A DNA stretch of 52,850 nucleotides, filler included, from Bipalium vagum (lineage: Eukaryota), in the NCBI GenBank assembly GCA_037834085.1. It is 3 parts of 3 records of this genome, joined end to end, with 100 filler letters (N's around TTAATTAATTAA, not from the genome) between each part and the next. Parts side by side here need not be neighbours in the genome. Positions count along the whole stretch, not along the records: positions 1 to 18,216 come from JBBMKC010036014.1; 2 more parts are not named here. One strand, written 5' to 3'. A model generated the notes under the pieces. That model saw nothing but the letters and a program-made list of their open reading frames with translations, was not told the DNA's origin and did no database searches. The translations under genes were made by a program, and so were the position numbers. Below are positions 2,275 through 45,936 of the stretch, piece after piece. Numbering within the stretch: position 1 is the first letter of the stretch; each line of letters opens with the position of its first letter.

Positions 2275-4223
2275 GATAATTGTTGTAGCAATAAGCAAAT
2301 AGGCAAATATTAAATAAGTCTATAAAATTGCTGAATTTCTATTGGTTCCTGCAATACGTGATTTAGAATGGTCAACGAAAATTCACTGCATGTATTCCTC
2401 GTCCACTGCCTTATTATACAGCATACATAATGGTTTTCATCGATTTATTATCCTTATACAAACTAATTTTATATTTGGTCGTGGTGGGATGCAGAATTTT
2501 CAGACATTGATGTCTGTTACAAATTCCAAACACTGTTTGATTTTTTCAAAATAATAATGTACAAATTTTTTATAACTTCATGTACCAATAATATAAAGCC
2601 TGTTGGTTTTAAATTATGATAACATAAATAAGAAGATAGGTTTTAATAATTAAAAAATATTTCTTTTTTTTTAATATAATAATAATACGACAGTCAACAT
2701 ATTGATTATAACAATTGCGAAATATTTTTTTTAGTTTAATTTTTCAAAGAATATCCATTGAAATTTATTTATTCACCTTTAATAAAATATTATGATATTA
2801 GTTCCAAATATTGGTGATAATTGTTTATTTTTTATTAATTTAAAATCGGTGACCCTTAAGATTTAATTTTAATAATTTTAAAATATATTTATCTTATTTT
2901 AAGGAATCAAGTACGGGATCGAATCTTGGGGAAAATATATTTTTGTTGTTGGGACTGTCCCGTCTCTTTTAACAATTAATGATAATATTATAAGATAAAA
3001 ATAAAAACACTTTAAAAATTAAATTAATTAATACTTCTTGTTGAAGTTAGTATAATAGTATGAATAATATAAATAGTTTAAAAAATTGAAAAAGGAAAAA
3101 CTCTCAGAATATAAAGCATGCTTTTGAAGTGAAATTCAGTGATATATAATCCAAGGAAGAGGCTTATCCCAATATTCTGAAATTTTAATTTTTCCAACAT
3201 ACTTTTTGATTCAAATTATGCATTTATTCGTAATATTATTTTTATGACTCTGAAAGTAAATAACAATCTACTTTTTTGATATGTAAAGGTTAATCTAAAT
3301 CAAAACTTTAAATCAAATTGGTCAATAAAATTTTAGACTTTTAAACATGAATCTTTAATTTAATATAACCTGTGATGCATAAAAAAGTGCACAGAGTTTA
3401 AAGTACTTAAAAACATAAAGTTAAAAAGCTTAATGTTACTTAAATAAAGAACATTAAAAATATGTTTATTTATAAGATTGTTGGGATCTATAGAAAAAGA
3501 GGTCTCAAGCAATTCTAAAACTGAGATTACAAAGGAACCGGAACCACAACAAACCAACCAAGAGCTGATGGACAGTGATTCCCCACATCTCATAATTGAC
3601 ATGTAACAATTTTTGTGAATTTGCATGAAAAAGCCATGTTAGGCTTACTTTCCTTTTATTATAGACTCCTTATGTAGTTTTATATTTTATAAAAAATAAT
3701 AATATTTAAATTATAAATTTGTTTTTAATGAAAATAAATAAATATAAATTGTGGGTTGAAGTTAATTAAAACTTAACCCACAAAATTAATAAAAATATTT
3801 AAAATGAATAATAATGATTCAAAAAATGAAACTTACTCTAAATACATTAATATTAGTGAATGTTTTTTGTTCTCTTTGCAAATCGATTCTGCTTCGCTCT
3901 AGGCGACAGAACACGTATTTTTGACATAAGGGCTTCTTGGTTATCATAAAACCAGGAAGACATTAATTAATTAACTAATAGATATTATTGCTCAGAAAGA
4001 GTTGTATTGTTTTGAAAAATATATTTTTGTAATAAAATTGTGCTATCTCAGTTGATTATAGCTAGATTTAGTTCATATCTTAAAACACTCATTTGTTATA
4101 CTACCTTTGAAGGAGTTGGTGAGCCCACATCTAACCTATATTTATATAGTTAGCATTTTATATTTTCGAGATTAATTCTCGCATTAAACGTCGAACCAAA
4201 CACTTACAGGATATACTGATGAC

Positions 4224-5280
4224 TAGGGCCACAAAAAGTCAATGACGTTAAAAAACATTTTTAAAGTCAATAAAGTTAATAAAAAATTATATAGTCAATA
4301 TAGACAAATAAAATTAAAAAATTTTTAATAATAAAGAAATTTTTTAATAATAATTAATATTTAAAATGCCAAAAATTGCAAAATCTTTAAGAGTAAGTCT
4401 CAAAAAATTACAAGAAAATATCCGGACGAATTTTTAATTACATCTGAAGGTAATTTTTTTGTTTGTGTTGTAATGCAGACATCACATATCATAAAATGTT
4501 TTTTGTTGATAAAACAATTGATAAAAAAATTTTTTATTGTTGAGCATTTCTGCAAAATAATAGCCAAACAAATTCAAAGAAACTTTTCAATTAGTAATTT
4601 TTGCCAAAGAACAATGATGATTTTATTATAAATCTAACAAAAGCACTCCTAGCTTCTGATATTCCATTGTGGAAATAGCTAAATTAATCTCTTCCTGAAC
4701 TTTTTCTTCTTTAGGACATCCTCTTCCTATCAATGAAACATACAGATCACATTTATCAGCTAAACAATGACGAAATCCAGGCAGTAAAGAATAATGAACA
4801 AAACAAGCAGATTTTTAAAATTATGGATGAATAAGAAGTTTTGAATTATAAATGTATTAATATTCTCGTGAGTATTCTTGAAAAGCCTGGCGTCTCTTAT
4901 TTATGTGAATGTCTTATTCTTGATTCATTCATTAACTCTACTGGTATTGTTCATATTATAAATGATACTTTTCCATTTCTAGGATGTGGTCGAGAACAAT
5001 TTTGTTTACTTCTCACAGATACCGCGCCATATATGGCATGTGCAGTGTAATCTTTGAATATTTTATATCCACATCTTTTTCATGTGATGTGCATAGCAAA
5101 TTTACTTCATAATTGTGCAATGAAAGTTAAAAGCTATGAAAGTTAAAAGCTATTTAAAGTTAAAAGCTAAAGTTTAATAGCTATTTCGCTATTAAAAGCG
5201 ACCAAAGTATTTAAGTTAATTTGTGCAACATTTGTTGAGAATCCTATCAACAGCACCATGTTTTTAGATTGGTAAAAAGC
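4224..5280 (+). mobile_element. Decayed hAT-related (CGGBP/DUF659-like) DNA transposon
   Basis: Possible left end TAGGGC at ~4224. Frameshifted reading from ~4366 gives MPKIAKSL..KYPDEFLITSEG..CCNADI..KMFFVD, later FCLLLTDTAPYM..LYPHLFHVMCIANLLHNCAMKVK, which are typical of this transposase group. Multiple stops. Confidence 0.7.
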
Positions 5281-5599
5281 AAATGGAAAAAGGGCGCTAC
5301 ATTATATGACTGAAAGAAAAAAAATTGGACAGATAAATAAAATAAGAGGACATCTATAAACAAAGGCTTTTTATCTTTGTTGACTAAAAAATATTATATT
5401 TTTTGTTTATGTAAATTAAATATATTTTTTAAATGTACATATGCGTTTAAAACGATACATTTATCTAAGATTATTATTTTTAATCAGAAAGCAATAATAA
5501 GCCAAATGAATGATTTTGTCAAAGGTACAATATTTGCATTTTTCAAAAATATCATTTTTCTTGAAAGGCTCTGGCATTCGCTTCAAAAATGTCAGATCA

Positions 5600-5780
5600 A
5601 TAGATGAATTGGTGATTTTGATAGTTCAAAAACGATTCCAATGATCTGTAACGCAAAGTGTGTTCTGGTCGTTCAGTTTCTGTGACAATAAATGAGGAAA
5701 TCGAAAAAATTTTTGAAAATGATTGATGATAGCCCTTTCCTTAATCTTCGGGAAATGTCAGATAAGTGTAATATTCCTCG
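5600..5780 (+). mobile_element. Short mariner-like transposase N-terminal fragment
   Basis: Degenerate W..RFQ....SGRS....EEIEKIFE.IDDSP.L.LRE reading resembling the mariner HTH region. Confidence 0.35.
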
Positions 5781-6625
5781 TGAAAAAAATTAAAACTAAT
5801 CAATTAAATCAATGGAAAGCAGAAAGAAGATTAGAACCAGATTTAGAGAAATTTCATAAACCAGTTACAGATGTTCTAATCATAAAAATGAAAAAGATAG
5901 TAAAGAAAAGGATTCAGCAAAGCCTCCCGAGACGAAGTCGAAGTTCTATAATGAAAACCTTCAATAGATTTTAGTAAACAACCTATTTCACCATCTTTAA
6001 CTTTGGATTTAAATACTTCTAATTTAAAACGAACCATTACTCCATTAATTATAGATAACACATTAATAATAAATCAAATGCCATTTTTAATTATCAAAGC
6101 AAATGAAAAAGCATTTGGAAAATATAGTAATCCAAAAGATCTAAAACCAAATGATGAAAAATTATTTGAATTAACTAAAGATTTAAACTTATTAATAGAA
6201 GGAAAATTTAATTCAAATATTTCAAAAATTTCTCAAAAAAATTTTTTCAAAATTTAATTCAAAAATTTGTGAGGATTAAAATGTTTTAAATAATTTAATT
6301 AGTTAAAATATTTATTATTTAAATTAATTAATTAATTTGTTTGAATAATTGTTATATTAAAATATAATTTCGAAATGACTCTTGATAATTTATCAACCGA
6401 TATAAATGTAACTAACAAAATTTAAGTAACTATCTTAAAATAATAAAAATTGATACACGATCACAAACATATAAATATATTAAAAGTATAAACAAAGAAG
6501 CATTTACAAATATATAGCAAGATGGACAAGGATATAAAATTTATAAACCAAAATATTTACCTGATAAATTTATAACTTTAAGAAAATATTTACCTGCTAA
6601 AAATCTAGGCCATGATAATCTTGAT
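5780..6625 (+). pseudogene. Conserved Polinton coiled-coil protein, copy 1 (paralogue of 14381-15163)
   Basis: KTNQLNQWKAERRLEPDLEKFHKPVTD ... GYKIYKPKYLPDKFITLRKYLPAKNLGHDNLD, alignable by eye to copy 2. Frameshifted and cut by a MITE at 6626. Confidence 0.7.
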
Positions 6626-6851
6626 ACACAAAGTGTACCCTGTTTATCCCCACGATTTTTCATGAACAAAAACTGCCCTAAAAATGGGTTAAAAAATATA
6701 CTTTTGGCAACAAAAAAAATTATACAAAATTACTAAAAATATAAAAAATATAAAAGTAAAATATAAAAAAGCACAAAATATATATTTTAATAATTCATGG
6801 CTTGTTTTTGTTCACGAAAAAATGTGTTGATAAGCAGGGTACACTTTGTGT
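6626..6851. mobile_element. MITE with ~50-bp imperfect terminal inverted repeats
   Basis: Left ACACAAAGTGTACCCTGTTTATCCCCACGATTTTTCATGAACAAAAAC; the right end is its near reverse complement GTTTTTGTTCACGAAAAAATGTGTTGATAAGCAGGGTACACTTTGTGT. Confidence 0.85.
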
Positions 6852-7260
6852 CATACAAATATAAAAAAATGTAAGATACATTTTTAAAAAAATCACTAAA
6901 AAAAATAATTTTACTGGAGACAAATATATATTTTTTTAGTTCAAAAAAATCAATAAAGAATTCACTAAAAATTGTTGAAAAATGGTATTGTGAATTTTGG
7001 GAAAAATCAATTAATAAAAAAATAATTCATCATGAAAATACAAAAATACATGAAAAAAATATTCAACAATTTCAACGACTAAAAACAACGACAATGACGA
7101 AAAATCAACGATATCGACGAATAAAAACAAGACCTATAAAATAAAACAACGATTAAAAATAACAATAACATCAATAAAAAAACAAAAATTTATCAACAAC
7201 TAAAAATAAAAATCTAAATATTCAAAACATTCAAGAAAGATTTCTATCTTTTTTATAAAA

Positions 7261-8952
7261 ACAGGAGGTGACATCCAATCACAAATTACAAATAATAAAT
7301 TTTTTAACAAATTTACAACTGGAAGATATCCAGGTGAATTACATTTAAAATCTTCAAATTCTTTAAATAAAACAAACCCAGTTCACAATTTTACGGGTCA
7401 ATTGGGCTTGAGTGGACTTTTTATAGAAGTCTGCTTGTGTTCGTAAATTAAATAAAAAAGCTGAATACTTTTAAATTATTTTACAAATGCAACACCTTCA
7501 AATTACGGGAAACTAAGGAGTGTCTTGTTCTACTACTTCAATTGAGAAATCTTTTGAAGGATCTCAGGTAATGACTGATCTCGAAAGTAATAACGAATAA
7601 GAATTGGACAATCCGCAGTCAAGCTCCTATGTTCATTATGATAAGAATATGGAGAAGGTTCAGAGACTAAACAGAGGTGAGCTTGAGAAATCTAATCAAT
7701 TTCAATGATAGCTTAAGATATAGTCCAGAATAGAAATATTCAATATGTTCTGCCTGGAACAAATGTTGACAAACGTTTAGAAAACTATGAAGAAATATTA
7801 GAAAATTTTGAAGAAAATCAAGATTTATCAATTCTCCCAATTCCAAAACCTTATTCAAATCCAATAAATCGAGTTGATCAAGCAGCAATGAAATATTATG
7901 TAAAATATATGTCATTTGATTTAAAAGATAGAAATGTTGAGGATGTTGAAATGATTCATGAAATGAAAAATATTCAAAATCGAACTCCAATAGAAAAACT
8001 TGAAAGTGCAATTGTAAAATAAATTATGCGAGCAAAAATTGCTCTTGGATCGGCTCTGCCGACTCTGAAAGGAAAGATAGCTTTAAGTTTAGGATTAGAA
8101 AGATCTTCAAAGACACTCGCAAATGAAAAACTTTTCAAAAATTCAAAAATTCTTCCTCCCGAAAAAAGTAAGCAACTAGCAACTAAACTTCATAAAGATT
8201 TTAGAAAAACTAAAAATTTCCTAAAAGTTAAAGTTAATAATAAAGATGATATTTGGTCTGCTGATCTTACTGAAGAAAAATATTATAAAATAATTCTAAC
8301 AGTTATTGATTTATATACGTTTTGCTTTTGCTGCTCCTTTAAAAAAAAAGCAGGTCAATCAATTACAGATGCTTTCGATAAAATATTTGAAGATTCTAAT
8401 AGAGTTCCAGAAAAACTTTGGGTAGACAAAGGAACAGAATTTTATAATAAAATATTTGAAAATTTTTGTGATGATAATGAGATTGAAATTTACTCAACAG
8501 AGAATGAAGGAAAAGCAGTTGTAATAGAAAGATTTAATAAAACTCTAAAAAATTTAATGTTTAAAAATTTACAGAACAAGGAAACAGAAAATGGTTAAAT
8601 CTTTTACCAAACTTAATTAATTTTTATAATAACAAAATTCATGATTCAATTGGAATGAATCCTAACAAATCCTGAGAAATTAAAGATTGAAAATAATAAA
8701 AATGAAAATAATTCGAATGAAAATATAAATCCATTAACTTTGAAAACTAAATTTTATATCGGAGATAAAGTTACAATTTTTAAATATAAAAATAAATTTG
8801 AAAAAGGATATACTGCAAAATGGACAGATGTAATTTTTATAATAAATAAAATTTATTATACAACTCCAATCGTTTATGGATTAATAGATTTAAATGGAGA
8901 AAAAATATTGAGCAGATTTTATGAAAATGAATTGCTGAAATCTTCATTTTAA
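7261..8952 (+). pseudogene. Polinton PLA2X (parvovirus VP1u-type phospholipase A2) domain in frame with retroviral-type (rve) integrase; interrupted and frameshifted
   Basis: GGDIQ..GRYPGELHL..HNFTG|PGTNVDKRL..PINRVDQAAMKYY..Y..DR..D, then after one TAA MRAKIALG..LATKLHK..DDIWSADL..LWVDKGTEFYN..KAVVIERFNKTLK (D,D,E present). The C-terminal part reads KF.IGDKV..FEKGYTAKWT..RFYENEL (8740-8952). Confidence 0.88.
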
Positions 8953-9481
8953 AAATTAAAATGTTATTGTTTTACTAAATCATTTTAAAAATAAAATGTT
9001 TTTGTATGTCTACGTTGATAAACAGTTCAAGATTTCAACTTTTATGTCTATGTTTGTAAAAAGTTGACAAGATAAATTTAACCAACTTGGCTGATATTTA
9101 TTAACAAGATCAACCTAACCAATTTGGTTGATAAGAATTAAATAAAATTAAACAATAACAGTAAAAATAATAATAAAGGAAATAGTAATATATAATCAAT
9201 GTTAATCACAAATAAAAATAAAATAAATACTGAATGAAACATTGTAATTTTTCTTTTTTGATTTCTTTGGTTTTAATTCTATATTAATTCTAAACAAATG
9301 AATAAATTCATGTGTGGTTCATTGAGATTCATGGAGATAAATTTTGTCCCCTTGTTACAGTTGTCTTACAATTTGGACCACTCATGTATTTCATTTAGTG
9401 TTTTTTAATAGTATTTCTATTTAACTAAATAGATAAAAAATAAATAAATAAATTTAGTATTTTCAAATTTATTTTTAAAAA

Positions 9482-10044
9482 ATGATTAAAAAATCACTGA
9501 GGAAAAATTAAAAAATATTATAGAGATAAGAAAACATAAGTATATTAGTTTCAATGGTGAAAAATATTACCTCTCCAAGAAAATAATTAACCAAGTTAAA
9601 GAACAAATAAATGAAAATGAAGAAATTAAACAAGGCGGTGTTCTTCCATTAATTCCAATACTTTGAGCAATATTTGCAGGTTTAGGAGCAGCTGGTGGAG
9701 TTGCAGGAGGAATTGCAACAACTGTTCAGAAAGCAAATGAAACAGCAAAAAATAATGCAGAGAAAGAAAAGATTGAGTTGGAAAAAGAGAAGTTAGAAAT
9801 GGAAGTTGAAAAGCTGAAACCAAAAACGTCCACAGAAGTATCAACTGGAACTGGACTTTACTTCAATCCATATTTTGGAAAAGGGTTGAGAGATACATTT
9901 TTAAATAGTACAGAATATAAAAGTTTACAAAAACCTGAAAAGAAAGATTTAAAGGAATTATTGCAAAAGCTTTGTAAAAATAAAATTAAAATAATCAAAC
10001 AAGGATCTGGAGTATTTATTGATCCTTACGAGAAAAGTAAATAA
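9482..10044 (+). pseudogene. Polinton/adintovirus core or membrane-active protein (adenovirus pX/pVII-like, 'cupiennin-like')
   Basis: IKQGGVLPLIPIL*AIFAGLGAAGGVAGGIATTVQKAN...GTGLYFNPYFGKGL...QGSGVFIDPY. GG-xLP and G.GLY..PY motifs, located directly upstream of the protease. Confidence 0.75.
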
Positions 10045-10179
10045 ACACACCGAATGTGCTAGAGCCGAAGACTCGTTTTCCCAACTCAAAATTTCCCCAG
10101 CAATATTTTTTTTCCCAACTTAAATTTTTTTCTAATATAAAAATTTCTAACAATTTTTTTTCAATTTATTTTTTAAAAA

Positions 10180-10580
10180 ATGATCTAAGAAATAGTGGAA
10201 TTCTTTTGTAAATATGGTAATATCAACTACAAAATTTGATTTAATCAATATTGCAAAAGATTTAGGTAAGTTTTCATGTAAGATGAAGAAATTAAATTAA
10301 AATATATTAATTCTGATTTTCCTTTAATTTGAAAGAAGAAGGAATCCATTGGCTTGGATATTGTAATTGTGTTTATTTTGACTCTTATGGTATTTTGACG
10401 AACTATAGTATTCAATAAATTAGTTTTTCAAATTGAAATGGATTTGATGTATAGTGGACAATTAACTTTATATGTTTTATATCAAATTTATAAAGAAGTT
10501 CCATTCAATAATTATTGTTCATGTAACCAAAATGAGAAATTTTTAGAAATTTTAAAGGGTTACAAAATGTTATTTTAGAA
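10180..10580 (+). pseudogene. Adenain-like cysteine protease, copy 1 (decayed; catalytic Cys reads Ser)
   Basis: ..STTKFDLINIAKDL..GIHWLGYCNCVYFDSYG..FQIEMDLMYSGQLTLYVL; alignable to copy 2. Confidence 0.75.
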
Positions 10581-10638
10581 AAATTAAATTAAAAAATAAG
10601 AATATAAAATTTAAAAAATTAAATTTTATTTAAAAAAA

Positions 10639-11080
10639 ATGAGTCAATTTAAGATTGTAAAAACAAATACATCACTAGAGTCTTATGTAAATATGGAATT
10701 AACTCAACTACAAATGTTGATTTAATAGATATTGCAGAACATTTAGAAATGCCCTTAAAAGTTTTATTGAAAGATGAAGTAACAGAAAAAAGAATAAAAT
10801 CTGAAATTCCATTAATTATTAATTATCAAAATACAAATCAAAAAGGAATTCATTGGGTTGAATATTACAAAAATTTTTACTTTGATTCCTATGGTTTACC
10901 ACTACTTGAAGATTTGGAAAAACATGTAAAAGAGTATAACAAATTTGATTTTCAATCTGAAACAGATTTAGCGTATTGTGGACAATTATCTTTATATGTT
11001 TTATAGAAACGTTTTAGTGGAAAAAAATTTGAGAAAATTTTAGAAGAGTTGGAATATTTTATTTTTGAAAAGCTAAAATT
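10639..11080 (+). pseudogene. Adenain-like maturation cysteine protease, copy 2
   Basis: CKYGINSTTNVDLIDIAEHLEMPLK..IINYQNTNQKGIHWV..YFDSYGLP..FQSETDLAYCGQL, with His, Asp, Gln and Cys in adenain order. One 5' frameshift and a premature TAG at 11004-11006. Confidence 0.85.
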
Positions 11081-11094
11081 TAAATTTAAAAAAT

Positions 11095-12217
11095 ATGGGT
11101 GATAAAGTTTTTGTTAATATTGCTGAAAATGGGGAATATATTTATACTAAAACTAAACCACCAATTTATTATGATGATAATGATAATGAAGAAATAAACG
11201 AAATAAATGAAGAAATTCAAAATATTCAAAATGACTCAGAAAATAAATTTTTAAATGTTACTGGAGATTCAATGAAAGGAATTTTAAATATGAATAATTT
11301 TAAAGTAAAAAATACACCAAACCAAAAGATGATAATGATATTGTAAATTTAAAATTTGTAAGATCAATAGAAAATCAACTTCAGACTAAAATTGAAAATA
11401 CTATAAAAAAATTAGAAGATGCGTAAGCAAAGCTTGCTAGTGATATGAACACGAAATTTAAAGTTTCTCTTGAAAATTTCAAAAAAATTATTCCAATACA
11501 AAAAATTATTGAAACCAAAAATATTAAGGAATCTCCAAAAAATTGATGTAACAGAATTTCAAGAACTTAAAACTTTTATAAATCAAATAAAAGCAAATAT
11601 GAAAGATTCTTATGCATTCGAACTATATAAAACATTATATGAAAAATTTAATCCGATTTCATGGAGATTATATTGGAAATCTTTGGTAAATGAAATTTCT
11701 AGTAAAAACAATTTAAAAATTTATAAAGATAATATTGGATATTTTCAAGATGAATAAAGAAAAAATTTATAAGATAGCTTTACTATTGTTTTAGTTGCAG
11801 AAAAAATTAATTATGAAATATATAATATTATTAATTTTGGAACAATAGATAATAAAAATGTTTTTCGTTGGTATAATAATAATAGAAATTATATTTTGTT
11901 AATAAAAATCTAAAAGAACGAACAGAAGTAACAGGATCTTCAGTTTTAAATCATAAATTTGGAACTAATTTAATTTTTTTCAAGTGTGTTAAATCAGAAA
12001 ATTTTTTAAACTATTCAACATTTTTTTATTATTCTGAAAAAAAATTTCAACAATTTTTCCTTCAATTAATAATTCTAATTTTCAATTTAATTCAACAAAT
12101 ATAAAAATTTATGAAATAATAATTTTTAACAGAATTTTATTAGGTAGTTAAATGATAGATATTAAAGATTTTATGAAAAGTTTCTATAGAAATATTCAAT
12201 ATAAAATTAAACATTAG
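11095..12217 (+). pseudogene. Putative virion fibre/receptor-binding protein (stalk repeat, coiled coil, possible LamG/ConA-like head)
   Basis: FLNVTGDSMKGILNMNNFKVKNTP.PKDDNDIVNLKFV resembles the GDTMxGxLNMxxxKIxNLxDPxxxxDAATKxYVD fibre/YadA-stalk repeat. The C-terminus reads FTIVLVA ... IKIYEIIIFNRIL..MIDIKDFMKSFY. Confidence 0.55.
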
Positions 12218-12272
12218 ATTTTTTTAGAAATTATAAATCTCAAAATAATTATTGTAAATTTTTTATTAAAAA

Positions 12273-12413
12273 ATGGAAAACGAATTTGGAAAACAAAATG
12301 AAATTTCTGAGTCATCTTTGATGTTTAGCGCTCTCGCCTCTTTATATCCTAATTTAGAAAAAGAAGATTATGGTGTGATTAAAGAGTATCTAAAAAAAAT
12401 TAACAGTTTATAA
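12273..12413 (+). CDS. Small uninterrupted ORF (46 aa) within the Polinton, unknown function
   Basis: MENEFGKQNEISESSLMFSALASLYPNLEKEDYGVIKEYLKKINSL*, preceded by the element's TTTATT-AAAAAATG start motif. Confidence 0.45.
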   Translation: MENEFGKQNEISESSLMFSALASLYPNLEKEDYGVIKEYLKKINSL

Positions 12414-12441
12414 AAAAAATTTTATTTTTATTTTTAAAAAA

Positions 12442-12576
12442 ATGAGTGAAATATTTAATAAAAAAATAATTGAATTAAATAAAATTTTATATTTATTAGA
12501 AATTTTTCCTATTTTGAAATATATTGAAATTCAATCGCTTCAAGATATTTATGATTTTTTGGAAATTGAATATTAA
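12442..12576 (+). CDS. Small uninterrupted ORF (44 aa) within the Polinton, unknown function
   Basis: MSEIFNKKIIELNKILYLLEIFPILKYIEIQSLQDIYDFLEIEY*, preceded by TTTATTTTTAAAAAAATG. Confidence 0.45.
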   Translation: MSEIFNKKIIELNKILYLLEIFPILKYIEIQSLQDIYDFLEIEY

Positions 12577-12861
12577 GAATTTCCTTTGGAATAATTATTT
12601 TAATTTTTTATTTTAATTTAGCACTTATGGTGCTAATATTTTTTTTCAAAAAATTCGAAATTGTGGGGACTCCCAGGCAAACGTTCAGGATCTTCAGGAG
12701 ATGAAAGACTGAACAAATCCCTTTAAACATTTTTGATTCATTCAATCTTTTTGCGTGATCTTTTGCATGAAACAAAACATCTTATAATATTGTAAAGAAT
12801 TTTTATTGTGCATGTGTGTAGAATAAATGTGAATTATTATTTAATATATGTAAATTATTAT

Positions 12862-13905
12862 TGATAAATCCCGAAAACTAAAATTCATAAAAATAAAAAA
12901 TAAATAAATAAAATATAATTAAAATTTATAAAAAAATGGTACATAAATTAAAATAATTCCAAATTTAGAAAGTTCTGTAAAAATAATTACTAAAAATAAA
13001 AATAATCATTAACAGCAAAATTAATAACAAAAGTAATATATAAAAATTAAAATTAGTAAATTTATATTACTATAAATAATTAAAAGATAAAAAATTATAA
13101 TATAAATTAAGTCGCTTTTTTATTTCAAAGTACAAGAAACAACAAATAATTAAGAGACTAAGCGAACTAATGTCGACAACAATTATTATCAATTTGGAAA
13201 TTAGAGATTATCAAGTCATCGATAATTAGAAAATAAGACAATATTTTCGTGTCGCGAAAACCATTTCAACAGCAAGTTCTCAAGTTTCATCTCAACTGTC
13301 AGATATTCAAAGAGATTATTCGGAAATTGGATATAGGAAAAAGAAGTCAAAAATTCTATATAAAGTAAGAATTCTATTAATCAAAAAAGAAAAGAGAAAG
13401 ACGACGAGAAAGGAGCAAAAACAAGAACAACAAAATCTAGAGAGGAGACAAATATTCAGTCAAAGCAAGCACAACAGGAGATAAACATTCAAGAGGATAT
13501 AAACGGTAATAGAAAGGGGAAAACAAGGAAAAATCTTGAATTCTAACGACGTATATTTTGATTCCGAAGTATTAAAGTCAAAGATATCTAGATTAACCAC
13601 GCCGTCCTATAATTCAGATTTAAAAGGTAATTATTTTTCTATTTAAGTCAACAATATTAATTTGACTACAAATTGAATATTGCGATTAAATTATCACCTC
13701 TAAATTAACCAGAATTAAACAATTGGATAGATCCCCAATTGTTGTTCCAATATCAAAATTTTTTTTTGTGTTCTTCTAATTTAAACTTTTTTGCTTTCTC
13801 AACGTCAAGTAGGGCGGAGAAGCGCTTTTTACTTTCGAGGGCTCTTGAGGCTAAGATAGCGAAGAGCATAAACTAAACATTTCAAAGTTTCTCCGGGACT
13901 TATCA
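12862..13905. mobile_element. Solo-LTR-like or short-TIR repeat (~1.04 kb)
   Basis: Begins TGATAAATCCCGAAAA and ends TCTCCGGGACTTATCA (TG...CA, imperfect inverted termini). Internal blocks recur at ~50620-51190. Confidence 0.55.
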
Positions 13906-14187
13906 TTAATAATAATATAATAATATTTGTGTTAACAATATTGTTCAAAAAAGTTTTGATAACTGAATATATTTTATTTAAATTAAATAATCCTTTTGAT
14001 TTGGCTTAGTAATCGAATTTTATTGAAATATTTAAAATTAAAATCGTTTTCACAACTGTTTCAGTATCCGATTATTTGCACACAATTTATCATCACCCAG
14101 TCGATTTAAAAAAAATATATATATCAAGGCAACCTTTTATATAAACCGAACGTAACACATGTAAGGAGTTTAGATGAAAAATTAATG

Positions 14188-14259
14188 GGGGACGTAGCTC
14201 AGCGGTAGAGCAGTCCATGCGCATGAGAAAGGTCCCGGGTTCGAATCCCGGTGTCTCCA
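14188..14259 (+). tRNA. tRNA-Ala(CGC)-like gene, probably a pseudogene or tRNA-derived element
   Basis: GGGGACG/TGTCTCC acceptor stem with G3:U70, D arm GCTC/GAGC, T arm CCGGG-TTCGAAT-CCCGG, discriminator A, intact A and B boxes. The anticodon stem (GTCCA/GAGAA) does not pair and position 33 is G. Confidence 0.75.
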
Positions 14260-14380
14260 ATTTATTTGAACCTCTAAATTCTTCTGAGCAATTTTGTAAT
14301 AAACGAGCCACGTTAAGTTTTGAAAAGATATCTAGGGTTCGAACAAACTATTTCCCAACAAACCATCAAAACTTAACAAA

Positions 14381-15163
14381 ATGGATGCAAATCAAAATTC
14401 AATTGATCTTAAAAAAAGAATAGAAAAATTTTAAAAATTAAAAGAAGTAAAAGAGAAATTTGAAACTAATCAATTAAATCAATGGAAAAAAGAAAGAGGA
14501 CTTCAACAAGATTTAACAAATTTTCATAAACCTGTTAATGATGCATTTAATAAATCTAAACAAGAGATAAAAAATGATGAAAACAAAACTAAAAAATTAA
14601 TTGTTTCTGAAAATAATGAAATTAAAGATGATCTCCCTGATAATTCAATACAACGAGTAAACATTCAATGGGATACAAATGCAGAAAATGTAACAGAAAC
14701 TATAAAACCAGTTTTTAATAACAATTTCTTAACAATAAATGACGGAATATTTTTAGTTTATAAAAGAAGTGAAAATACGCTTTTAAGAAATGAAACAACT
14801 AGAAAAGAATATGAATTAAAAGAAAGACTTTAAAAATTATTGTTCAAAAATAATCTAAAAGACATGAAGAATTATATAGAAATAATCAATAGTGCAAAAT
14901 CAAGGATGAAATCAATTTAGGTTAAAAATATTAAAACCCAAATAAACAAACTTAAAGCAATAAAAAGAGAAGAAGGTTATAAAATATATAAACCAAAACA
15001 TACTCTTGATCAATTTTTAACATTAAGCAAATATTTATCTGCTAAAAAGCAGGACATGATAATTTTGATCATTTTATTTTAAAAATTTTAAATAAATTAA
15101 AAAAACAAAAAAATTACAGATAACAATTTTGAAAAATTACGAACAAAGTTCTCTCTAAATTAA
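14381..15163 (+). pseudogene. Conserved Polinton coiled-coil protein upstream of penton, copy 2
   Basis: MDANQNSIDLKKRIEKF*KLKEVKEKFETNQLNQWKKERGLQQDLTNFHKPVND...GYKIYKPKHTLDQFLTLSKYLSAKK(A)GHDNFD. Several stops and frameshifts. Confidence 0.7.
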
Positions 15164-15194
15164 AATATTTTATTAAAATATTTAGTTATTGAAA

Positions 15195-15685
15195 ATGTAT
15201 TTAAATATGATAAAAGTTTAAAAACATTAAAAGAGAAAGAATATTATATAAAAATAAAACCAAATCCAATTTCTTTAAATTGTCTAATGAAAATATCAAA
15301 AGGTTGTTTTGTTCAATTTCCTAAAGAAAATTCTTTAGCTACCATTTTAGGATTTGAAACTGAAAAAACTTATGCAGAAGAAATTCATGAATCTAAACCA
15401 GTTAATATTTCAATATATATTTCAAATATAAATAGAATTTGATTGATTGTAATATTGTTGAAGGAGCATTTTTCAACCGAGAAGGAACCAACATAATATT
15501 TGATTTTCCTTCAAATACTGTTTGAAAAGGATATAGAATTATTGAAAGATCAAAAATTCCAATTTATTTTACTTTGATTACAAAAATATTTAATGAAATT
15601 AAATTTAAAATAATTGATGATAAAGGAAAATTAATAGATTTTAATGGAGAACAATAAAAGTTACATTGAGTGATAAATCAAATGA
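15195..15685 (+). pseudogene. Polinton minor capsid protein (penton), N-terminally shortened
   Basis: IKIKPNPISLNCLMKI..NSLATILGF..ESKPVNI..NINRI.IDCNIVEGAFFN..IIFDF..GYRIIERSKIPIYF..IIDDKGKLIDFNGEQ. Confidence 0.85.
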
Positions 15686-16074
15686 AATTCAACCTCCTGA
15701 TAAATTAGATAAGAAATTTAAAAAATTATTTATTTTTGATGACGTAATAAATGAAAAAAAAATCAAACTATTATCGAAATGTATTTTACAAGAGGAAGAC
15801 ATAATAAATGTTCAATAATTTATTTATTTCAATCATTTTTCATTTACCTTTAAGATGTATAAGGAATAATACTAATGTTTTAATTTTATTTAAAATTTCA
15901 AAATCAGATAAAAATCAAATTTATTCAAAAATATTAGCTCATTTCATAGAGAAAGATGATTTTGATTATTTGTATGATTTTCACATGAAAGAAAAATATA
16001 ATTATATTTTTATAAATTTACTAGATGAAAAAATATTACATTCAATTTTTATATCTACTTGTACAAATATTTAA
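15683..16074 (+). pseudogene. FtsK/A32-like genome-packaging ATPase, C-terminal half only
   Basis: EIQPPDKLDKK....FDDVINEK.QTIIEMYFTRGRHNKCSIIYLFQSFF.LPLRCIRNNTNVLILFK, giving Walker B, the RGRH arginine finger and the Q motif. No Walker A. Confidence 0.85.
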
Positions 16075-16113
16075 AAATAAAAATATTTTAAAAATTAATT
16101 TTATTTCTAAAAA

Positions 16114-16500
16114 ATGAGTAATAATTTAAACTTAGATAAAAATACATATCATCACGATTAACAGTAAAAAATTTGATTATTTAGAAACTTGTTTTAATCC
16201 AACAACAGCAACAAATTTAAATAAAAATGGAAATTTAACTTTTAGCTTATTAAAAACAGCAAATGCTTTGGATTTATCAGAAAAACCTTTTAGTTTTTGA
16301 AATTGAAATAACAAATATAAAAGCAGAAAATTAGGATCAACAGAAGTAGAAACAATTGAATATTTAGGAACTTCAAATTCTAACAATTTTTTATTAATTG
16401 ATAAAAATAATGATGGAGAAATTTTTGGATGTGTTTCTGATAAAATTAAAGAAAATCCAAATAAAGATAATAAAGAATTTAAAACAAGAAAAAATCTATA
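16114..16500 (+). pseudogene. Polinton major capsid protein (hexon), N-terminal fragment
   Basis: MSNNLNLD..DYLETCFNPTTATNLNKNGNLTFSL..ALDLSE.FLVFEIEI..LGSTEVETIEYLGTS. Follows the ATPase and carries the shared start motif. Confidence 0.65.
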
Positions 16501-16529
16501 TTCAAATAAATAATAATAATTTTAAATAA

Positions 16530-17030
16530 ATAATTTTGTATTTCTTCTTTTTTTATTATTTTATTGAGGAACAAATAATTATTCCAAAAAATTTTCACCT
16601 GATATTGTCCAAATTTCATTTTTATCTTTTTCTTAATTTGGTTTATTATCATATAAATATCCAAACATTACTTTATAATCTGGATTTTTTGTATTTATAT
16701 AGTTTTTTATACATTATTATACATTAGTAATTAATATATTTATGACTAAATTTTAATTCAAAAACTAGTTTTCTTTTATAATTCTAAAAAATCAATTCCT
16801 TGATATCTTTTCTCAAAATCTTTAAATGAATTTATAACATGTTCAAAAATGTTACCAATTTGAGATTGAATATAACCAGATAATTGGTGCAATATTTGAA
16901 CTTTAATTGATAAAAATGTGTTCATAAAATTTGAATGTTTTGGTTTATAAGTAAAATCTAGATTAAGACATTCATTAAATATTTCCTTTACTTTTTCTTT
17001 AAAATAAAATGAATCAAAATATTTTAAATC
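16530..17030 (-). pseudogene. PD-(D/E)xK restriction-endonuclease-like gene (Eco47II-like layout), frameshifted
   Basis: DLKYFDSFYFKEKVKEIFNECLNLDF..ILHQLSGYIQSQIGNIFEHVINSFKDFEKRYQGIDFL/NYKRKLVFELKFSHKYIN..KKLYKYK/NPDYKVMFGYLYDNKP..EIWTISGENF. Confidence 0.55.
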
Positions 17031-17819
17031 TATATTATATATATATAATATAATATATATATATAAATTTTATAATATGTTTCATTTTATATATTTTGTT
17101 TTGGATTTTGTTTTCATTTTTTATTGTTTTTTTAAAGAATAAGTCGATATATCGTGCAATATTTTTTGACAGAAAATTAATGCAAATCCAACTTAGATTT
17201 TGTATGAATATCAAGTAGCTTTATTTAATAATTTTGAATCAGACAACTTGAAAAATATTCCTATTATAGCTTCGAAATAGCTTCAAAATATTCTGTTTTA
17301 TGGATATTTTGTTCGTGAGTAGTCATATTTACCTAATTTTGTTTATGAATTAGGCAAATATACCCAATTTAGGTTAAATAACTTCAAAATAGTCTACTTT
17401 ACTGAATATTCCACAAAAGTCATATTTTGACTGTTTTATTTTATAAATGTGTAAAATATGGGTTATTTAGGCTAAAAATAGCTTCGGAATATCTTGCTTG
17501 GGGAATATTCCGGATCTATAACTATTCACTTCCCACAGTACTAAAAGCTGTTATTTTCGGTACTTTTCATCTGTGTTTTAAACTGGTCTTCAATGAACTA
17601 TAAATATCAACTTTATTTACAGATTAATGACATTTATGATTCTGATGATGACTGGTCATTGATTTTGTTGAAGATAATGTACATCGGCTTTTTAAAGATA
17701 TTAATAATTAAAAAGAATATAATTATTGGGTTGAACGGAAAGTTCGTACTTTCTTTGGTAGATGTTTTTAAGCAGTTTTGTAAGTAATATAAAAAAATTA
17801 TTAAACAATATATAGACTA

Positions 17820-18216
17820 TTATGATCGATTATCTGTCCCCATTTTTCGGGAAGTTTCATGATACCGTCAGAAAAGAATTGTGTTGGCTGAAGTACTTGT
17901 CCAGGTGAAATTTTATATCTTTTAAAGATTAATATTCTTTTCCATCTAAACTAGAGATGGTAATCTAAAAGAGTGTTTTCAGAGGAATGAGCGAGGTGAC
18001 TTAACACCTCCCATCCAAACTCTGAAAATTTTCGCAGCACACTCTTTGCTAAGTAATATCTGTCGTTATCATGGTGAAATACCACTCCTTTTCGATTAGC
18101 TAATTCTGGAAGTTTTTTATGTGTTACGATTTTATTTCACTATAAACCCAGTCGTAACCTTAGCTTGAAACTTCACTGACCCCTTCACTTGTTCCTATTC
18201 GTGTACGCAATTGAAT
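17820..18216 (-). mobile_element. Mariner transposase C-terminal relic abutting a gap
   Basis: Reverse strand gives GVVFHHDNDR..FGWEVL..DY.. and DGIMKLPE(K)W. Confidence 0.7.
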
Positions 18217-18316
18217 NNNNNNNNNNNNNNNNNNNNNNNNNNNNNNNNNNNNNNNNNNNNTTAATTAATTAANNNNNNNNNNNNNNNNNNNNNNNNNNNN
18301 NNNNNNNNNNNNNNNN
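18217..18316. other. Assembly gap with TTAATTAATTAA linker
   Basis: N-run, all-frame-stop spacer, N-run. Confidence 0.97.
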
Positions 18317-19509
18317 ATTATTATTTTTAATATTATTATTATTATTTTACCTCTGACCCTTTTGCGGTCTTTAACTTAAATTTTAAAAGGTTATAAGGGA
18401 TATGCCCTTGATTAACCCAACATATATATTACCAATAATATATATTTTATTGAGACCAATGAATATATATAAATAAACAAATTATGTCTAAAATCACAAT
18501 ACGTGAAAATAATTTTAAAAACCAATTCAAATAGGATGAAAATATTTTTTATCTTCAGACATTCTATTTAAAATGAAAAGATGCATACATTTTTTTCTTT
18601 CATGAGAATGGGAATTGAGAAAACTATTTAGATATAATTAAGTCTTTATGATACAACTTTGTCGTAGAATTAAATCTAACATAGTTTTCTGCAATATGGG
18701 TGTCAATTCATTATTCTTGTCTTGAAAGAGATTTTATAAACTATAATTTTCCTGGAATATAGATTTTCAGGGCCGGACTGTTCCATTGGGATGCCAGATT
18801 GCTGATCTAAGACCATTTGACTTTTTTCCTTTGAGGACGTCTGAACAGTTATATAAAAGAAAACTATAAGATTTACAAGACCTGAAACAAGTCAGTCAAT
18901 TTTAATCAGTTAAAGTATCAACAGAAATGTGTCAAAACGTTATAAATGACTTTTTTAATCGCCTATATAAGTGTATTTTGTAGAAAATATTACATCTTAA
19001 TAAATAAATGTTATTATGTAAAAAATTTGCAATCCTATGTTGAATATACTTTACGGTATAACATTTTATAACATTTTCTATTTACAAATCTTAATATATT
19101 AGTTAAAATTTTTAATTGATTGAAAGTATTAGTATGCAAATAGATAACTTTAAAAATTGGTAGATTCTTTAGACTTGAATTAAGGTGTTGAGTTTTTTAA
19201 TTCATTTTAATACTATTACAGGTAGTAAATTAATATCACTTAAATGTCTGGATGTAAATTCTAATGTTCAGCATCAAGCAAAAACATTCTTATACATGTA
19301 AAAAATTCATGATATCCTGATTTTTATGTATCATTTATAATATAATTTATTTTTATTTAATTTATGATATAATTTAAGTTTTCATATACTTTGTTTTACT
19401 ATGCAAAAGTATAATTTTAAAATTACTGTTTCAACATATAGTTTGAAATTTTATTTTCTATACAGAAGAATTATTGAAATATTTATTTAAAATATTTTTT
19501 AATAATATA

Positions 19510-28500: not shown

Positions 28501-31500
28501 AAACTAACAATACTGTTATCCTTAAATGATTAAGGGTGCTCGAGATGTTTAATTTTACTGTTTAAAGTTTCAATTGATTTGTATTATTTTTTTATTTTTC
28601 AATCAATAAAATGTTAGAAAAATAACTGAAGCACAGACATTACGATTTGATAATTAATAGTGAAATATACTAAAGAGTGTTTCAGATCACATTTAATTTT
28701 CGATATTTTTATAATAACGAAAAACTGTCAATATTTAAAAAAGAATGCAAATCTATGTACAAAAGATTTATTTTTAATATAATCTCAAGAAGACATTAAC
28801 TCACTTTGATCTTTAATCAACGATCAAGTTAAAAATGAATAAACTTATTGTAAGTTAAATGGGACTTTAAGAACTTTAATATAGTAAAAGGGTCCATTTA
28901 ATCAATCATCATTTTCATTTTTCTGCAATGTATACAGGAAAATATATTGCTAAAAACTATCGACACTATTTATGTTAAAGTGATTTTTTCAATAAATTCC
29001 AGAAAAATCCACACCAAATAACATTTCTGGGATATTTAAAAATTTGTGTACATGTGAACAGTTGTGTCAACGGCAAAGACGGAAAGAGTTTTTAATTAGC
29101 ATTGTTACAGACGAAGAAAAATGGATTAATTATAGAAGTCTGAAGCGTAAAAGATCATGGTACCAGCCGGGTCATGCGTCTACATCGGCGAGCAAACCAC
29201 ATATTCGTGGTCAAAAATCCATTCTGTGTATTTGGTTGGATCAGCTTGGTATCATATATTATGAGCAGTTGCAACAAAACAAAACAATCACTGGAATCGG
29301 TATCGAGATCAATTGAAGCGTTTAAGCCTTACGAGATAAACGACCATATTATGTCGACAGGCATAATAAAGTCATTTTGCAACTTGACAATGCTCGGCCG
29401 CACGTTTCGAAAACTGTTAAAACATTTTGGAAACACTCAGATGGGAAGTTCTACTACACCCGCCATATTCGTCCGATATTGAACCTACATATTACCATCT
29501 GTTTCTTTTCGTGTCTCATGGCCTGGCTGACCAGTATTTTCAATCCTATGAGGATACCAGAAAGTTTCTCAAATCTTAGATCGCCTCAAAAGTCCGGATT
29601 TTTTTTAAAACACGGAATGTGTACCTTGGCAGGAGGTTTGGAAAAAGTATTGAAAAGAAGTGGAGAATATTTCGAAGAATTAATGTGTTTATTTTTATAA
29701 CAAATTTTAGTTATTTTTTTTAAGAAATCTGGAAACATATTCACAACTAATATTTTTATTTATTGTTTTATTTTATTATTTGATTATTATTGGTTTTAAG
29801 ACTTAATTTTTATATTTTTGTAAATGATTAAAAATCTAAAATATCAATAAAATGAGCAGGGCCTATGAAACTACTTTAATAAAAGAACGAATTCTGGTCT
29901 ACATTTTTGACAGTTGTTTTTGGAGAAATTTACTTTATTTTTCCCAATTCGCTTATTTACCTGACCGATTTAGATCGTTTCTCTACTGTCCATTGGGTAT
30001 TTGAGTTGTTGCGTTTATTTTACGGTTTTCCGGTTGCGATTATTCAATTATTTCCGATTGGTTCCCAATCATCATTCCGACGAGAACAGTCTTATATTTA
30101 GTGGAATGTAAGTTTTATTTATTTAAAATATTTTATTGATTTTTTACAATTAATTATTTTGTTGTTAGTATAAAAATTGATTCAACGAAAATCTATACGA
30201 GATTTATGTTTAAAAGATTAATTCTCTCAATTATCAAAAATCTATAAAAATTTTGCATTTTTTATCTAAAATTTATTATTTATTAATCTACCCAATCGGT
30301 AGATATCGATTTTCTGTTACTTCAAAAAGTTTTTTGTTTTTAAGTAATATTTCTTTTCATTAAAAGTGACCTGATATGCATTATTCGAATTTAAATTGGA
30401 GATATGATTTTTCTTCATTTGTCATTTATTAAGTTTTCAGCTAGATAAGTTTTTTTATCAAATTGCTGTCTGATCAGCCTCCTCACTATTATCGATGGCA
30501 GGTTGAGTGCTGAAAATTATGGATTAAATTGGAATTTCTAAAAAATCGTTTTATTTGATTTATAGTCATTTTATTGATTTATTATTAAAATCTATATAAA
30601 TAATATTTGTGATTGATTGGTATTTTTTTCAGAATTTGACTGAGTTTTGATGCATTGTGTCAATATGAAATTTTTATCATTTCTTTCAATAATTACATAA
30701 CAATAAAATTTATTTACTTTTTAAAATCAATAAAAATGCGTCAACTAAAATTCTTAAAAATTGATAAATAAGTAAAAATTGGTAAATCAAAATGACATTT
30801 TTTCCAACATTATCATTAGCTAAAAGGAATTTATTTTGTCGATTATTTTATTTCTCAGATAAAAGCGGCCAATTCTCAGTAAACAGGAATTAAATTATAT
30901 TTTTACCAACATTAACCATTTGATAAATATTGAACTTTGGTCAAAAATCTGAAACCGAAAATTGATCTATCGTCATCTTCTATGATAGTGCAGAAAAATT
31001 AACATTCATTTAATACATGATTTATTTTTAAAATTTTAATGAAAAAAAATATGATCATTTATAATCAATAAATTTTGTGTTTTTTGTGAAGAAAATAAAA
31101 ATATTATTTGTGAGGAAAAAATCCGAGTCAAAATTTTTTCAAACGAAATTTGTTCTTGTTTTAATTTTAGGAAATTTTCTTTTCGATTATAATTTGTAAA
31201 ATTATTGAGTTTTGTTCTAAAAAATTGAAACCTGCACAAAATTACTGTGAAAAATATACATCATTAAATGTGAAAGGATCAAAATGAAAAGATTCTAAAT
31301 AATCAGAAAGAGGGGATGTCAAAATCCATTTGGTAACCAAAGCTGGCCAATCGAATTTTAGAAAATATATTTAAACAATTTCCGTATTTTGAGTTAATTT
31401 TTTAGTAATTAAATTGTAAAAAAATTTTGTTTTCAAGTATTGTTCTGAAAGTAAAATAATGAAAAATTTTATTTTAATTTTGAAAAAAATTTGTCCTTAG

Positions 31501-33243: not shown

Positions 33244-34270
33244 ATTCCTTAAAGAGATTACCTATTATTATTATTATTGCATGCTGTGATCATCTCTATT
33301 GTGTAGTCGTGATCAATTTTAATAATTGTCGTCTTAATATCCTTGACTCGTTTTCTGTGTCTCTCTTGACATGGAGGCAGCATTTATTCGTGTCAATAGA
33401 TGCATATTAAAATGACAAATATTCCAGTGAACATTTCATTGTTTTCAAAATGTGATATCAATACTCACCGGCTTTGTGACTTGCGGCTTTTTGTTGTTTT
33501 CCATTATTATAGCTTATACTTTTGATGATTTACTTGAATCTAAGGGAGCATTGAAAAATTAAATGTTTATTTTAAAATAATCTTTGAAATTTCTTCCAAT
33601 TCTTTTTCTGATTTTTAATATTTGGGATTAAATTTGTCCAATGGTTACGTCTATTGTTTGGACAGTATTAAACTTTGAGATAATTTTTGGTTTATTCTGT
33701 TGGGTTTCAGTTTTAATCAACCAATCAAGTTCATGTTTAATTTTTGAATTTAATTTTAAGGTTTTTAAAACAAAACCCTTCAGTGACGCTTTGCACATAC
33801 TTGTAATTCTCACGGGTGAGTGTGGGTAAAATAACCTAGTGGCAGTTATACAAATTTTATTGATATTTTTCGAATCCGGTAAGTCGAACAATTAATGCAT
33901 GACTTGCAAAATTCGGTTTTACGTGGTGGGTTGTGGGTATTAGTTTTTAAAAATATTATTTTTCCGACTCCTGATCTGACGTTGAATGAAGACTTTAATT
34001 TTTCAAAAATGGGTTTAACGATTGAATACAGTTGAGATTTAATGTCCTCTTGTCGTTAACAATGGTTTTGGGTTCATAAAAACAACTGTGAAACAATGCT
34101 AAAGGTTTTGATTGAGATTGTATTTTTTGATTACTTATTCTCATTTTTTATGTTGCCTCGTGTTTTAAAATGATTGTGAGTCTTTAACACAATGACAATT
34201 TGCATTTCCCTGAGATTATAAATGGCCAAAAAACTCAATTTGCTCCTAGATCTAATATTTAATGTTGGTA

Positions 34271-34486
34271 CAGGGTGTTTCATAAGTAACTGACTATTTT
34301 ATTTTTTAAATATCTTTTTATAAAAATGAAAACTGAGACAGATTTTTTCTTTACGTTCTTTTATTTTGTAATTTTTCATGCTGATATTTTATGATATGAT
34401 GAATATATATATATATATATGATGAATCAAAAATTTAATAATAAATCATTCATTTAAAAAATGTCAGTTACTTATGAAACACCCTG
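34271..34486. mobile_element. Tc1/mariner-type MITE with TA target duplication
   Basis: TA|CAGGGTGTTTCATAAGTAACTGAC ... GTCAGTTACTTATGAAACACCCTG|TA, perfect 24-bp inverted repeats. Confidence 0.9.
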
Positions 34487-36314: not shown

Positions 36315-36414
36315 NNNNNNNNNNNNNNNNNNNNNNNNNNNNNNNNNNNNNNNNNNNNTTAATTAATTAANNNNNNNNNNNNNNNNNNNNNNNNNNNNNN
36401 NNNNNNNNNNNNNN
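36315..36414. other. Assembly gap with TTAATTAATTAA linker
   Basis: N-run, all-frame-stop spacer, N-run. Confidence 0.97.
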
Positions 36415-36419
36415 TTCTC

Positions 36420-37660
36420 AATTCATTTAATTAATCGAACGCAACCTCAAGCAACCTTCAACCGTTGAGACCTAAGATACATTTACGCTCCAAACTATAA
36501 CATCTTTTTGTCCATCAACTTAGGATCTTAACAAGTGCCTTGTCCGTACAAGCACAGGTTGACTCTTTTTATGAAATTTTTTATGACATTTTTGGATTGG
36601 TCCTTGGAAATTTCAGTCATCCTGCTTCGCATTTCTTCTTTTAGCTCATTAATGGTTTGGGGTTTGTTGACGTATACCTTATCTTTAAGATAACCCCAAA
36701 AAAAGTAGTCTAGCGGCGTCAAGTCACACGACCTTGGAGGCCAATTCACATCACCTCACTTCGAGATAAGACGAATATTAAATTTTGTTCGCAATAACTG
36801 CATGTTTCCTTGGCAGAGTGACATGTTGCACCGTCTTGTTGAAACCAGATGCCATCCACATCCATACCATCAGTTTCATGCAATAGAAAGTTCGAAATCA
36901 TCTAACAAAGTCGAATACCACTCCTTGTCCACTTTCATTTTCAAAAAAGTCCTCCAGCCCAAATTCCACACCAGACCGTAATCAACCCAGGATACATTGG
37001 AAGTCCAAAGATCGCTTTTGGATTTTCCGAACCCCAAATTCAACAATTTTGTCTATTGACATGGCTATAAAAATGCACCTCATCGCTAAAGATGATTTTT
37101 TTCGAAAATTATTCATCATGCTATTTATGTTTTAAAACCCAACTTGCAAAACTCTTGACGGCTTTCATGATCATGTGGTTTCAATGCTTGTGCCAATTGG
37201 ATCTTGTAAGCATGCAAATGTAGGTCTTCCTTTAAAATTCGTTGAAGAGAACTTTTGGAATTCCAATTTGTTGACTGCGAATAGCAATTGATGTGAAACC
37301 ATTTTTTTGGACACTGACTTACAGAGGCTATAATTTCAGTCGTATGAGAAGTACAAATATGGCCATAGAATTCTTCGTTACAAACGGAATCACTTAATTC
37401 AAATTTCTTTATTAAATTTACTACGGTGTTGTGACAAGGTGCATCACGATGACCAAAAGCAGTTCTGCATTTTCGAATTGTTTCTGCAGAACATGACCCA
37501 TTTTGATAATGAATTTCAACAATTTGTATGCGTTACTGGATTGTATAATTTTTCATTTTGAAATATCAATATTTATAGATATTATTAAAACAAATATATA
37601 TACGATGGTATTTTTGCCATAAAAATTATAGCCAATGAGTCCTTTATGAATGACCCTATA
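36420..37660 (-). mobile_element. Decayed Tc1/mariner-superfamily element (DUF4817-type HTH plus DDD transposase)
   Basis: RIQIVEIHYQNG, ILKEDLHLHAYKIQLAQALKPHD, IIFSDE.HF, WFQQDGATCH, WPPRSCDLTPLDYFFWGYLKDKVY; end TATAGGGTCATTCAT at 37660. Confidence 0.88.

Positions 37661-39918: not shown

Positions 39919-45936
<6,018 letters not shown>

Follow-up and report, generated by a model that had tools for sequence, protein, structure and literature searches.

A broken gene, very probably for an endonuclease of the Eco47II type, lies in a decayed Polinton/adintovirus-like region of the nuclear DNA of Bipalium vagum (assembly GCA_037834085.1), where the phospholipase A2-like gene is interrupted by a group I intron at a GGNCC site, the predicted target of the enzyme. 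The window (the whole stretch of DNA analysed, 52,850 nt) contains the broken gene with its motifs, the intron and its GGT/CC exon junction (the slash marks the intron position), and no methylase match is present in the scanned segments. The position of the intron on a GGNCC site points to shielding by the intron, not by a methylase, and to an enzyme that shut out rivals lacking the intron or served homing into them. We infer the specificity and activity of the enzyme, its co-inheritance with the intron and the context in which it acted, and put the full intron-nuclease mechanism at about an even chance.

Genomic setting and features

The window is AT-rich eukaryotic nuclear DNA. Its features are as follows.

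323-2319, TENT5-type nucleotidyltransferase (profile annotation of the window)
7210..8019, + strand, phospholipase A2-like (PLA2X-type) gene with a group I intron inside (PF08398, E 0.0092, weak)
7399..7752, + strand, group I intron of 354 nt (Rfam RF00028)
8023..8949, + strand, rve integrase gene, broken (PF00665, E 3.6e-9)
15164..15654, + strand, penton (minor capsid)-like gene, broken (from its frames)
15645..16071, + strand, likely A32-type packaging ATPase fragment (ESM Atlas matches)
16114..16510, + strand, major-capsid-like ORF, truncated (from its frames), converging on the 3' end of the nuclease gene
16561..17039/17040, - strand, broken gene, likely Eco47II-type PD-(D/E)xK endonuclease, ~160 codons visible
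16779..17069, - strand, first frame of the nuclease gene, 97 stop-free codons, with a long helix carrying Glu and then G-I-D
16676..16783, - strand, second frame of the nuclease gene, with the E-L-K motif and an in-frame stop at 16726-16724
16561..16713, - strand, third frame (C-terminal part) of the nuclease gene, with internal stops at 16635-16633 and 16581-16579 and no profile match itself
19.4-32.2 kb, LMBR1-like gene, rich in introns
41-46 kb, P-type cation ATPase

Mariner/Tc1-like fragments with Pfam matches (PF01359, PF16087) are present at 28996-29313 (+) and 37128-37532 (-), and further ones were recognised by eye at 17954-18136 (-) and 18706-18895. The two copies of an 85-bp inverted repeat (34269-34353 and 40435-40519, 95% identity) are separated by 6 kb. 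Paired 44-N gaps occur at 18217-18316 and 36315-36414, with a 12-base AT spacer inside the first pair.

The Polinton/adintovirus-like element

The stretch from ~5.7 to 17.1 kb is a decayed Polinton/adintovirus-like region. The ATPase fragment has no Pfam match; its ESM Atlas matches score 0.94-0.97 with a recognition value of 3622, and Pox_A32 is carried by 13% of one cluster. The gene at 15164..15654, which we take to be penton-like, matches neither Pfam nor PHROG. The ORF ending at 16510 is presumed to be hexon on the strength of a motif. The initial annotation had the nuclease gene converge on a hexon fragment; the convergence on this truncated ORF stands, and the hexon identity finds no match in Pfam or PDB. 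The ORF ends after ~130 codons, ~50 bases from the 3' end of the nuclease gene, and the junction between the two may be an insertion or a deletion. A tandem duplicate gene (10202-10481 and 10681-11005, 66% identical, both copies broken or partial) is presumably protease-like; no profile match stands behind that label. No polymerase match was found among 157 segments of 3300-18200, and no terminal (inverted) repeats were found for the element.

One gene of the element occurs twice, with 82-84% identity between 5786-5873 and 14456-14543 and between 6528-6625 and 14973-15069. The pair reflects either two adjacent elements or an internal duplication, and suggests two copies; the block with the intron and the block with the nuclease gene may come from two different copies. 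The linkage in cis of nuclease and intron is uncertain, since 8.8 kb separates them and the gene pair suggests two copies. Their co-occurrence is seen in this one region only.

A 48-bp inverted repeat (88%; 6626-6673 and 6804-6851) surrounds 130 bp and resembles a small inserted transposon. A weak inverted similarity (69% over 162 bp) connects 6166-6323 with 11945-12095. Queries with the integrase, the phospholipase and the ATPase found no relatives of the element; one candidate locus was rejected by eye as a copia-type retrotransposon.

The broken nuclease gene

The nuclease gene is real and is dead (a pseudogene) in the present copy, because its reading frame shifts twice (near 16784 and near 16690) and three in-frame TAA stops interrupt it ahead of the final stop at 16563-16561. 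Minus-strand peptides of about 165 residues across two or three frameshifts had been read here before; they are present, in three frames, and the internal stops had gone unmentioned. Upstream ATGs are found at 17117 and 17085, both beyond a TA-rich tract, and the start of the gene may lie as far upstream as 17117.

The feature test for PD-(D/E)xK enzymes (Glu in a helix, Asp in strand 2, E-x-K in strand 3) finds the order present. The candidate catalytic residues, in superfamily order, are Glu 16844-16842, Asp 16793-16791, Glu 16759-16757 and Lys 16753-16751, an arrangement that supports the catalytic core proposed in the initial annotation (a helix with E, then GxD, then ExK); the catalytic roles of these residues are putative and follow from their spacing. 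Single-sequence modelling of residues 1-87 yields just two helices (pTM 0.39), with residues 36-78 helical; the strands lie beyond the first break.

The composition of the nuclease strand (A 0.451, C 0.076, G 0.100, T 0.373; G+C 0.176) agrees with that of the coding strand of the penton-like and ATPase genes (A 0.443, T 0.370), from which host intron DNA differs (A 0.323, T 0.385). The A-T skew changes sign at 16.5 kb. The Polinton-like composition noted earlier is thus confirmed, and composition and contiguity make the gene a probable cargo of the element, a proposal to which the evidence for the neighbouring ATPase also lends support.

Family assignment of the nuclease

Eco47II enzymes are a PD-(D/E)xK type II family, and the residue order of the superfamily is among the matters described in PMC3424549. 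The Eco47II model of Pfam, PF09553 (RE_Eco47II), ranks first of 24,736 models for a 119-residue X read-through spanning the first break and one stop (E 1.8e-4, 21.6 bits). The match aligns residues 44-104 with positions 56-116 of the 202 in the model, covers part of the gene, and does not reach the cut-off of 25.9 bits. The frameshift repair and profile search proposed earlier therefore put the expected family first at a score below its threshold, and a homolog search of PDB gave nothing. Neither the unjoined first piece (87-97 residues) nor the C-terminal read-through has a Pfam match, and NCBIfam matched neither read-through. In the ESM Atlas, the top three matches of the unjoined first piece are PmeII/EcoO109I/Eco47II clusters (0.91, 0.91 and 0.90), in which PF09553 is carried by 26%, 96% and 86% of the members, respectively. 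Lower ranks (0.80-0.88) are EcoO109I, HinfI and ApaLI clusters, of which the HinfI and ApaLI families recognise sites other than GGNCC. The family or clan is common to all ten of the 10 best named matches, at a recognition value of 1942, where high scores count from 2300.

As a control, 157 natural segments of at least 36 aa from 3300-18200 were searched at E <= 0.01. The best chance-like match among them reached E 5.3e-4, so the E value of the nuclease is modest by itself; none of the 157 matched a restriction-enzyme or methylase family at that threshold. The family call goes beyond chance because two methods, applied to two queries, name the family that had been predicted in advance. The initial Eco47II-type call is upheld by both, and the gene very probably belongs with that type, as profile and Atlas matches indicate; it is classed here as Eco47II-like, short of membership in PF09553.

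No direct homolog was recovered. The first piece had no true match in a 5.8-billion set (longer proteins) or in PDB, no match to 1.84 billion representatives at E <= 0.001, and chance matches only among phages and plasmids; neither it nor its last 53 residues had a true match in GTDB. The X read-throughs had no true match in phages, plasmids, PDB, viral and metagenome contigs or the 5.8-billion set. PF09553 had no match in any of 27 records or 14 controls, nor in E. coli K-12. One candidate locus was rejected, the match being confined to a small part of a giant-virus-like ORF of 738 aa. Degenerate motif scans yielded 35 viral loci, none of which (0/35, by eye) encodes the family in the matched frame.

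The group I intron

The intron at 7399-7752 is matched by RF00028 over 7408-7743, with 60.7 bits where the threshold is 50 (E 1.6e-13). It has U before the 5' splice site and a terminal G, and its P1 hairpin folds. It contains no stop-free run of more than 52 codons in six frames and therefore encodes no nuclease itself. The folding energy (z = -1.74; 4 of 100 shuffles equally stable) adds little. The intron lies between Gly and Pro codons of the phospholipase A2-like gene, and the exon junction GGT/CC is a GGNCC site. Among the 3,730 positions of the element that end in T, 2 give this junction, a figure that exaggerates, since introns prefer codons that are conserved and rich in G+C. An Rfam scan found no second intron near the nuclease gene, and the intron-exon junction pattern led to 19 viral loci, none of them (0/19) homologous. 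The interpretation given in the initial annotation holds in part: the family and the cargo reading are supported, and the group I intron on a GGNCC site had been overlooked.

GGNCC sites and search for a methyltransferase

GGNCC has been assigned to an Eco47II homolog, according to a passage of PMC10305163. The element contains 2 GGNCC sites against 3.0 expected in 11.4 kb, where a depletion lacks power in one AT-rich copy. One of the two, at 14231, lies inside a tRNA-like insert; the other, GGACC at 9375, is unexplained. The dipeptide Gly-Pro is absent, against 5 occurrences of Pro-Gly (2.3 expected for each; P about 0.1), a weak and non-significant trend in the direction that fits avoidance. 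The whole window holds 25 GGNCC sites against 24.0 expected (~one per 2 kb), so host DNA is not depleted; with sites at chance level there, an active enzyme would endanger the host unless confined.

The tRNA-like unit extends over 14188-14259 (+), has an abnormal anticodon arm, and carries one of the two GGNCC sites of the element. The site at 9375 falls in a 100-bp patch (9301-9400), possibly an insert, whose G+C is 33% where the flanking windows have 17% and 10%.

None of the 157 segments (at least 36 aa, 3300-18200) matches a methyltransferase at E <= 0.01, a search that short or decayed remnants could escape; this agrees with the earlier remark that none is visible. The decayed copy may once have carried a methylase that has since disappeared; a polymerase match is missing from it as well.

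Proposed mechanism

The Eco47II-like nuclease would have cut GGNCC, as its family resemblance suggests. The Gly-Pro of the phospholipase would force a GGNCC site on the gene, and the group I intron would have hidden that site from the predicted enzyme, so that in the carrier the site would exist only in spliced RNA. Where two such viruses shared a cell, the nuclease might then have cut the rival's phospholipase allele, which lacked the intron. A rival genome so cut would perish or be repaired from the intron-bearing copy, and the repair would spread the intron; this would be collaborative homing with a five-base cutter.

Alternative explanations

That the gene is no more than a fortuitous reading of AT-rich sequence, or that it inserted next to the element without being related to it, is improbable, more so than any other alternative considered. 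The PF09553 score is below its cut-off, the first piece is without a homolog among the 1.84 billion representatives, a control segment reached E 5.3e-4, and fragments that look mariner-like by eye lie just beyond the nuclease gene; yet the agreement of two methods on two queries over a family predicted beforehand speaks against chance, motif order and spacing fit, and the strand composition is that of the genes of the element. If the gene is taken as real, the enzyme may have degraded host DNA in lytic growth, with the virus's loss of its own sites and the intron as side effects of self-protection and with no role in rivalry or homing. Restriction enzymes of chloroviruses do break down host DNA, and GGNCC occurs in the window at the expected rate of ~one per 2 kb. 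However, the element integrates, as the rve integrase indicates, and would need the host to survive. Such degradation, rather unlikely as a full account, is also compatible with the intron-nuclease mechanism and not exclusive of it.

The alternative that we rank foremost, unlikely as it is, supposes a viral restriction-modification pair of which this gene is the nuclease member; the methyltransferase would have been lost in decay, and the intron site would be coincidental. Such a pair has a precedent in group G2 of the Tetraselmis Polinton-like viruses (PLVs), where an adenine methyltransferase is described next to a restriction endonuclease (PMC9356565); the present copy is incomplete, with neither a polymerase match nor terminal repeats, and GGACC remains at 9375. 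The absence of a methylase match in all 157 segments argues against it, and the intron position on GGT/CC would be left without explanation. A slightly less probable proposal is that of a free-standing selfish endonuclease that landed at the capsid gene or close by and has no connection with the intron. It would suit a gene that is distant from the intron and whose 3' end adjoins a capsid-like ORF stopping after ~130 codons; free-standing homing nucleases are reported as common in PLVs in the portions of PMC12220804 consulted, and PD-(D/E)xK homing enzymes exist (described in part of PMC3943268). The nearest families, however, are short-site restriction enzymes, and beyond the nuclease gene neither a continuation of the capsid gene nor a second intron is seen.

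Comparison with known systems

With the Eco47II family (PF09553; related EcoO109I, PF14511) the nuclease shares its top Pfam and Atlas matches, the order helix-Glu, Asp, E-x-K and a similar size. It differs in scoring below the cut-off, in being broken, in lying in eukaryotic nuclear proviral DNA and in having no methyltransferase seen beside it in the scanned segments, whereas the family is entered for bacteria in a table of PMC3424549. Tetraselmis PLV group G2, as presented in sections of PMC9356565, offers a likeness in a prokaryote-type restriction endonuclease within an integrated element of the Polinton-like kind, with the destruction of competitors as its suggested role; the host there is an alga and the adenine methyltransferase is adjacent, whereas here no methylase is seen and the intron lies on the predicted site.

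Collaborative homing of phages, in the account available from PMC11296320, likewise combines an ORF-less group I intron with a separate nuclease gene, and in both cases the intron would block cleavage. There the homing enzyme is next to the intron; here the enzyme is a predicted five-base cutter of restriction type, 8.8 kb off, in what is likely an animal nuclear element. Group I introns of protist PLVs are of the RF00028 type, 309-376 bp long and situated in PLV genes (from parts of PMC12220804), which compares with 354 nt here. In Rhodomonas, Paulinella and Desmodesmus the gene that houses the intron is short and lies upstream of the one for the capsid, and those parts of the same source name no restriction-type partner. 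Alpha adintoviruses with PLA2X combine, as here, a phospholipase A2-like gene and an rve integrase in an animal-type Polinton (sections of PMC8502044); by term counts, the main text of that paper has no passage on an adintovirus nuclease gene or group I intron. HNH and VSR domains have been described, in material consulted in excerpt, from the polymerases of nematode and mollusc Polintons.

Biological significance

No report of an animal Polinton with an Eco47II-like gene or with a restriction site shielded by an intron was found in the parts consulted of the open main-text literature (PMC12220804, PMC9356565, 10.1101/2023.08.22.554363, PMC8502044, PMC11296320, PMC3424549, PMC3943268, PMC10305163); supplementary adintovirus maps may bear on the point. 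Animal nuclear DNA would not be expected to hold either an enzyme of restriction type or a protein gene interrupted by a group I intron. Our broader proposal is tentative, its probability falling somewhat short of even: animal Polintons may have acquired a bacterial restriction enzyme with a five-base site and used it without a methylase, shedding its site elsewhere and hiding the unrecodable site of the phospholipase gene under an intron, so that nuclease and intron would form a weapon that excludes or converts rivals in the animal nucleus, with this window as a decayed instance. If the pairing is true, it would amount to restriction without modification, in which RNA splicing is the immunity step, and Polintons would compete as co-infecting viruses.
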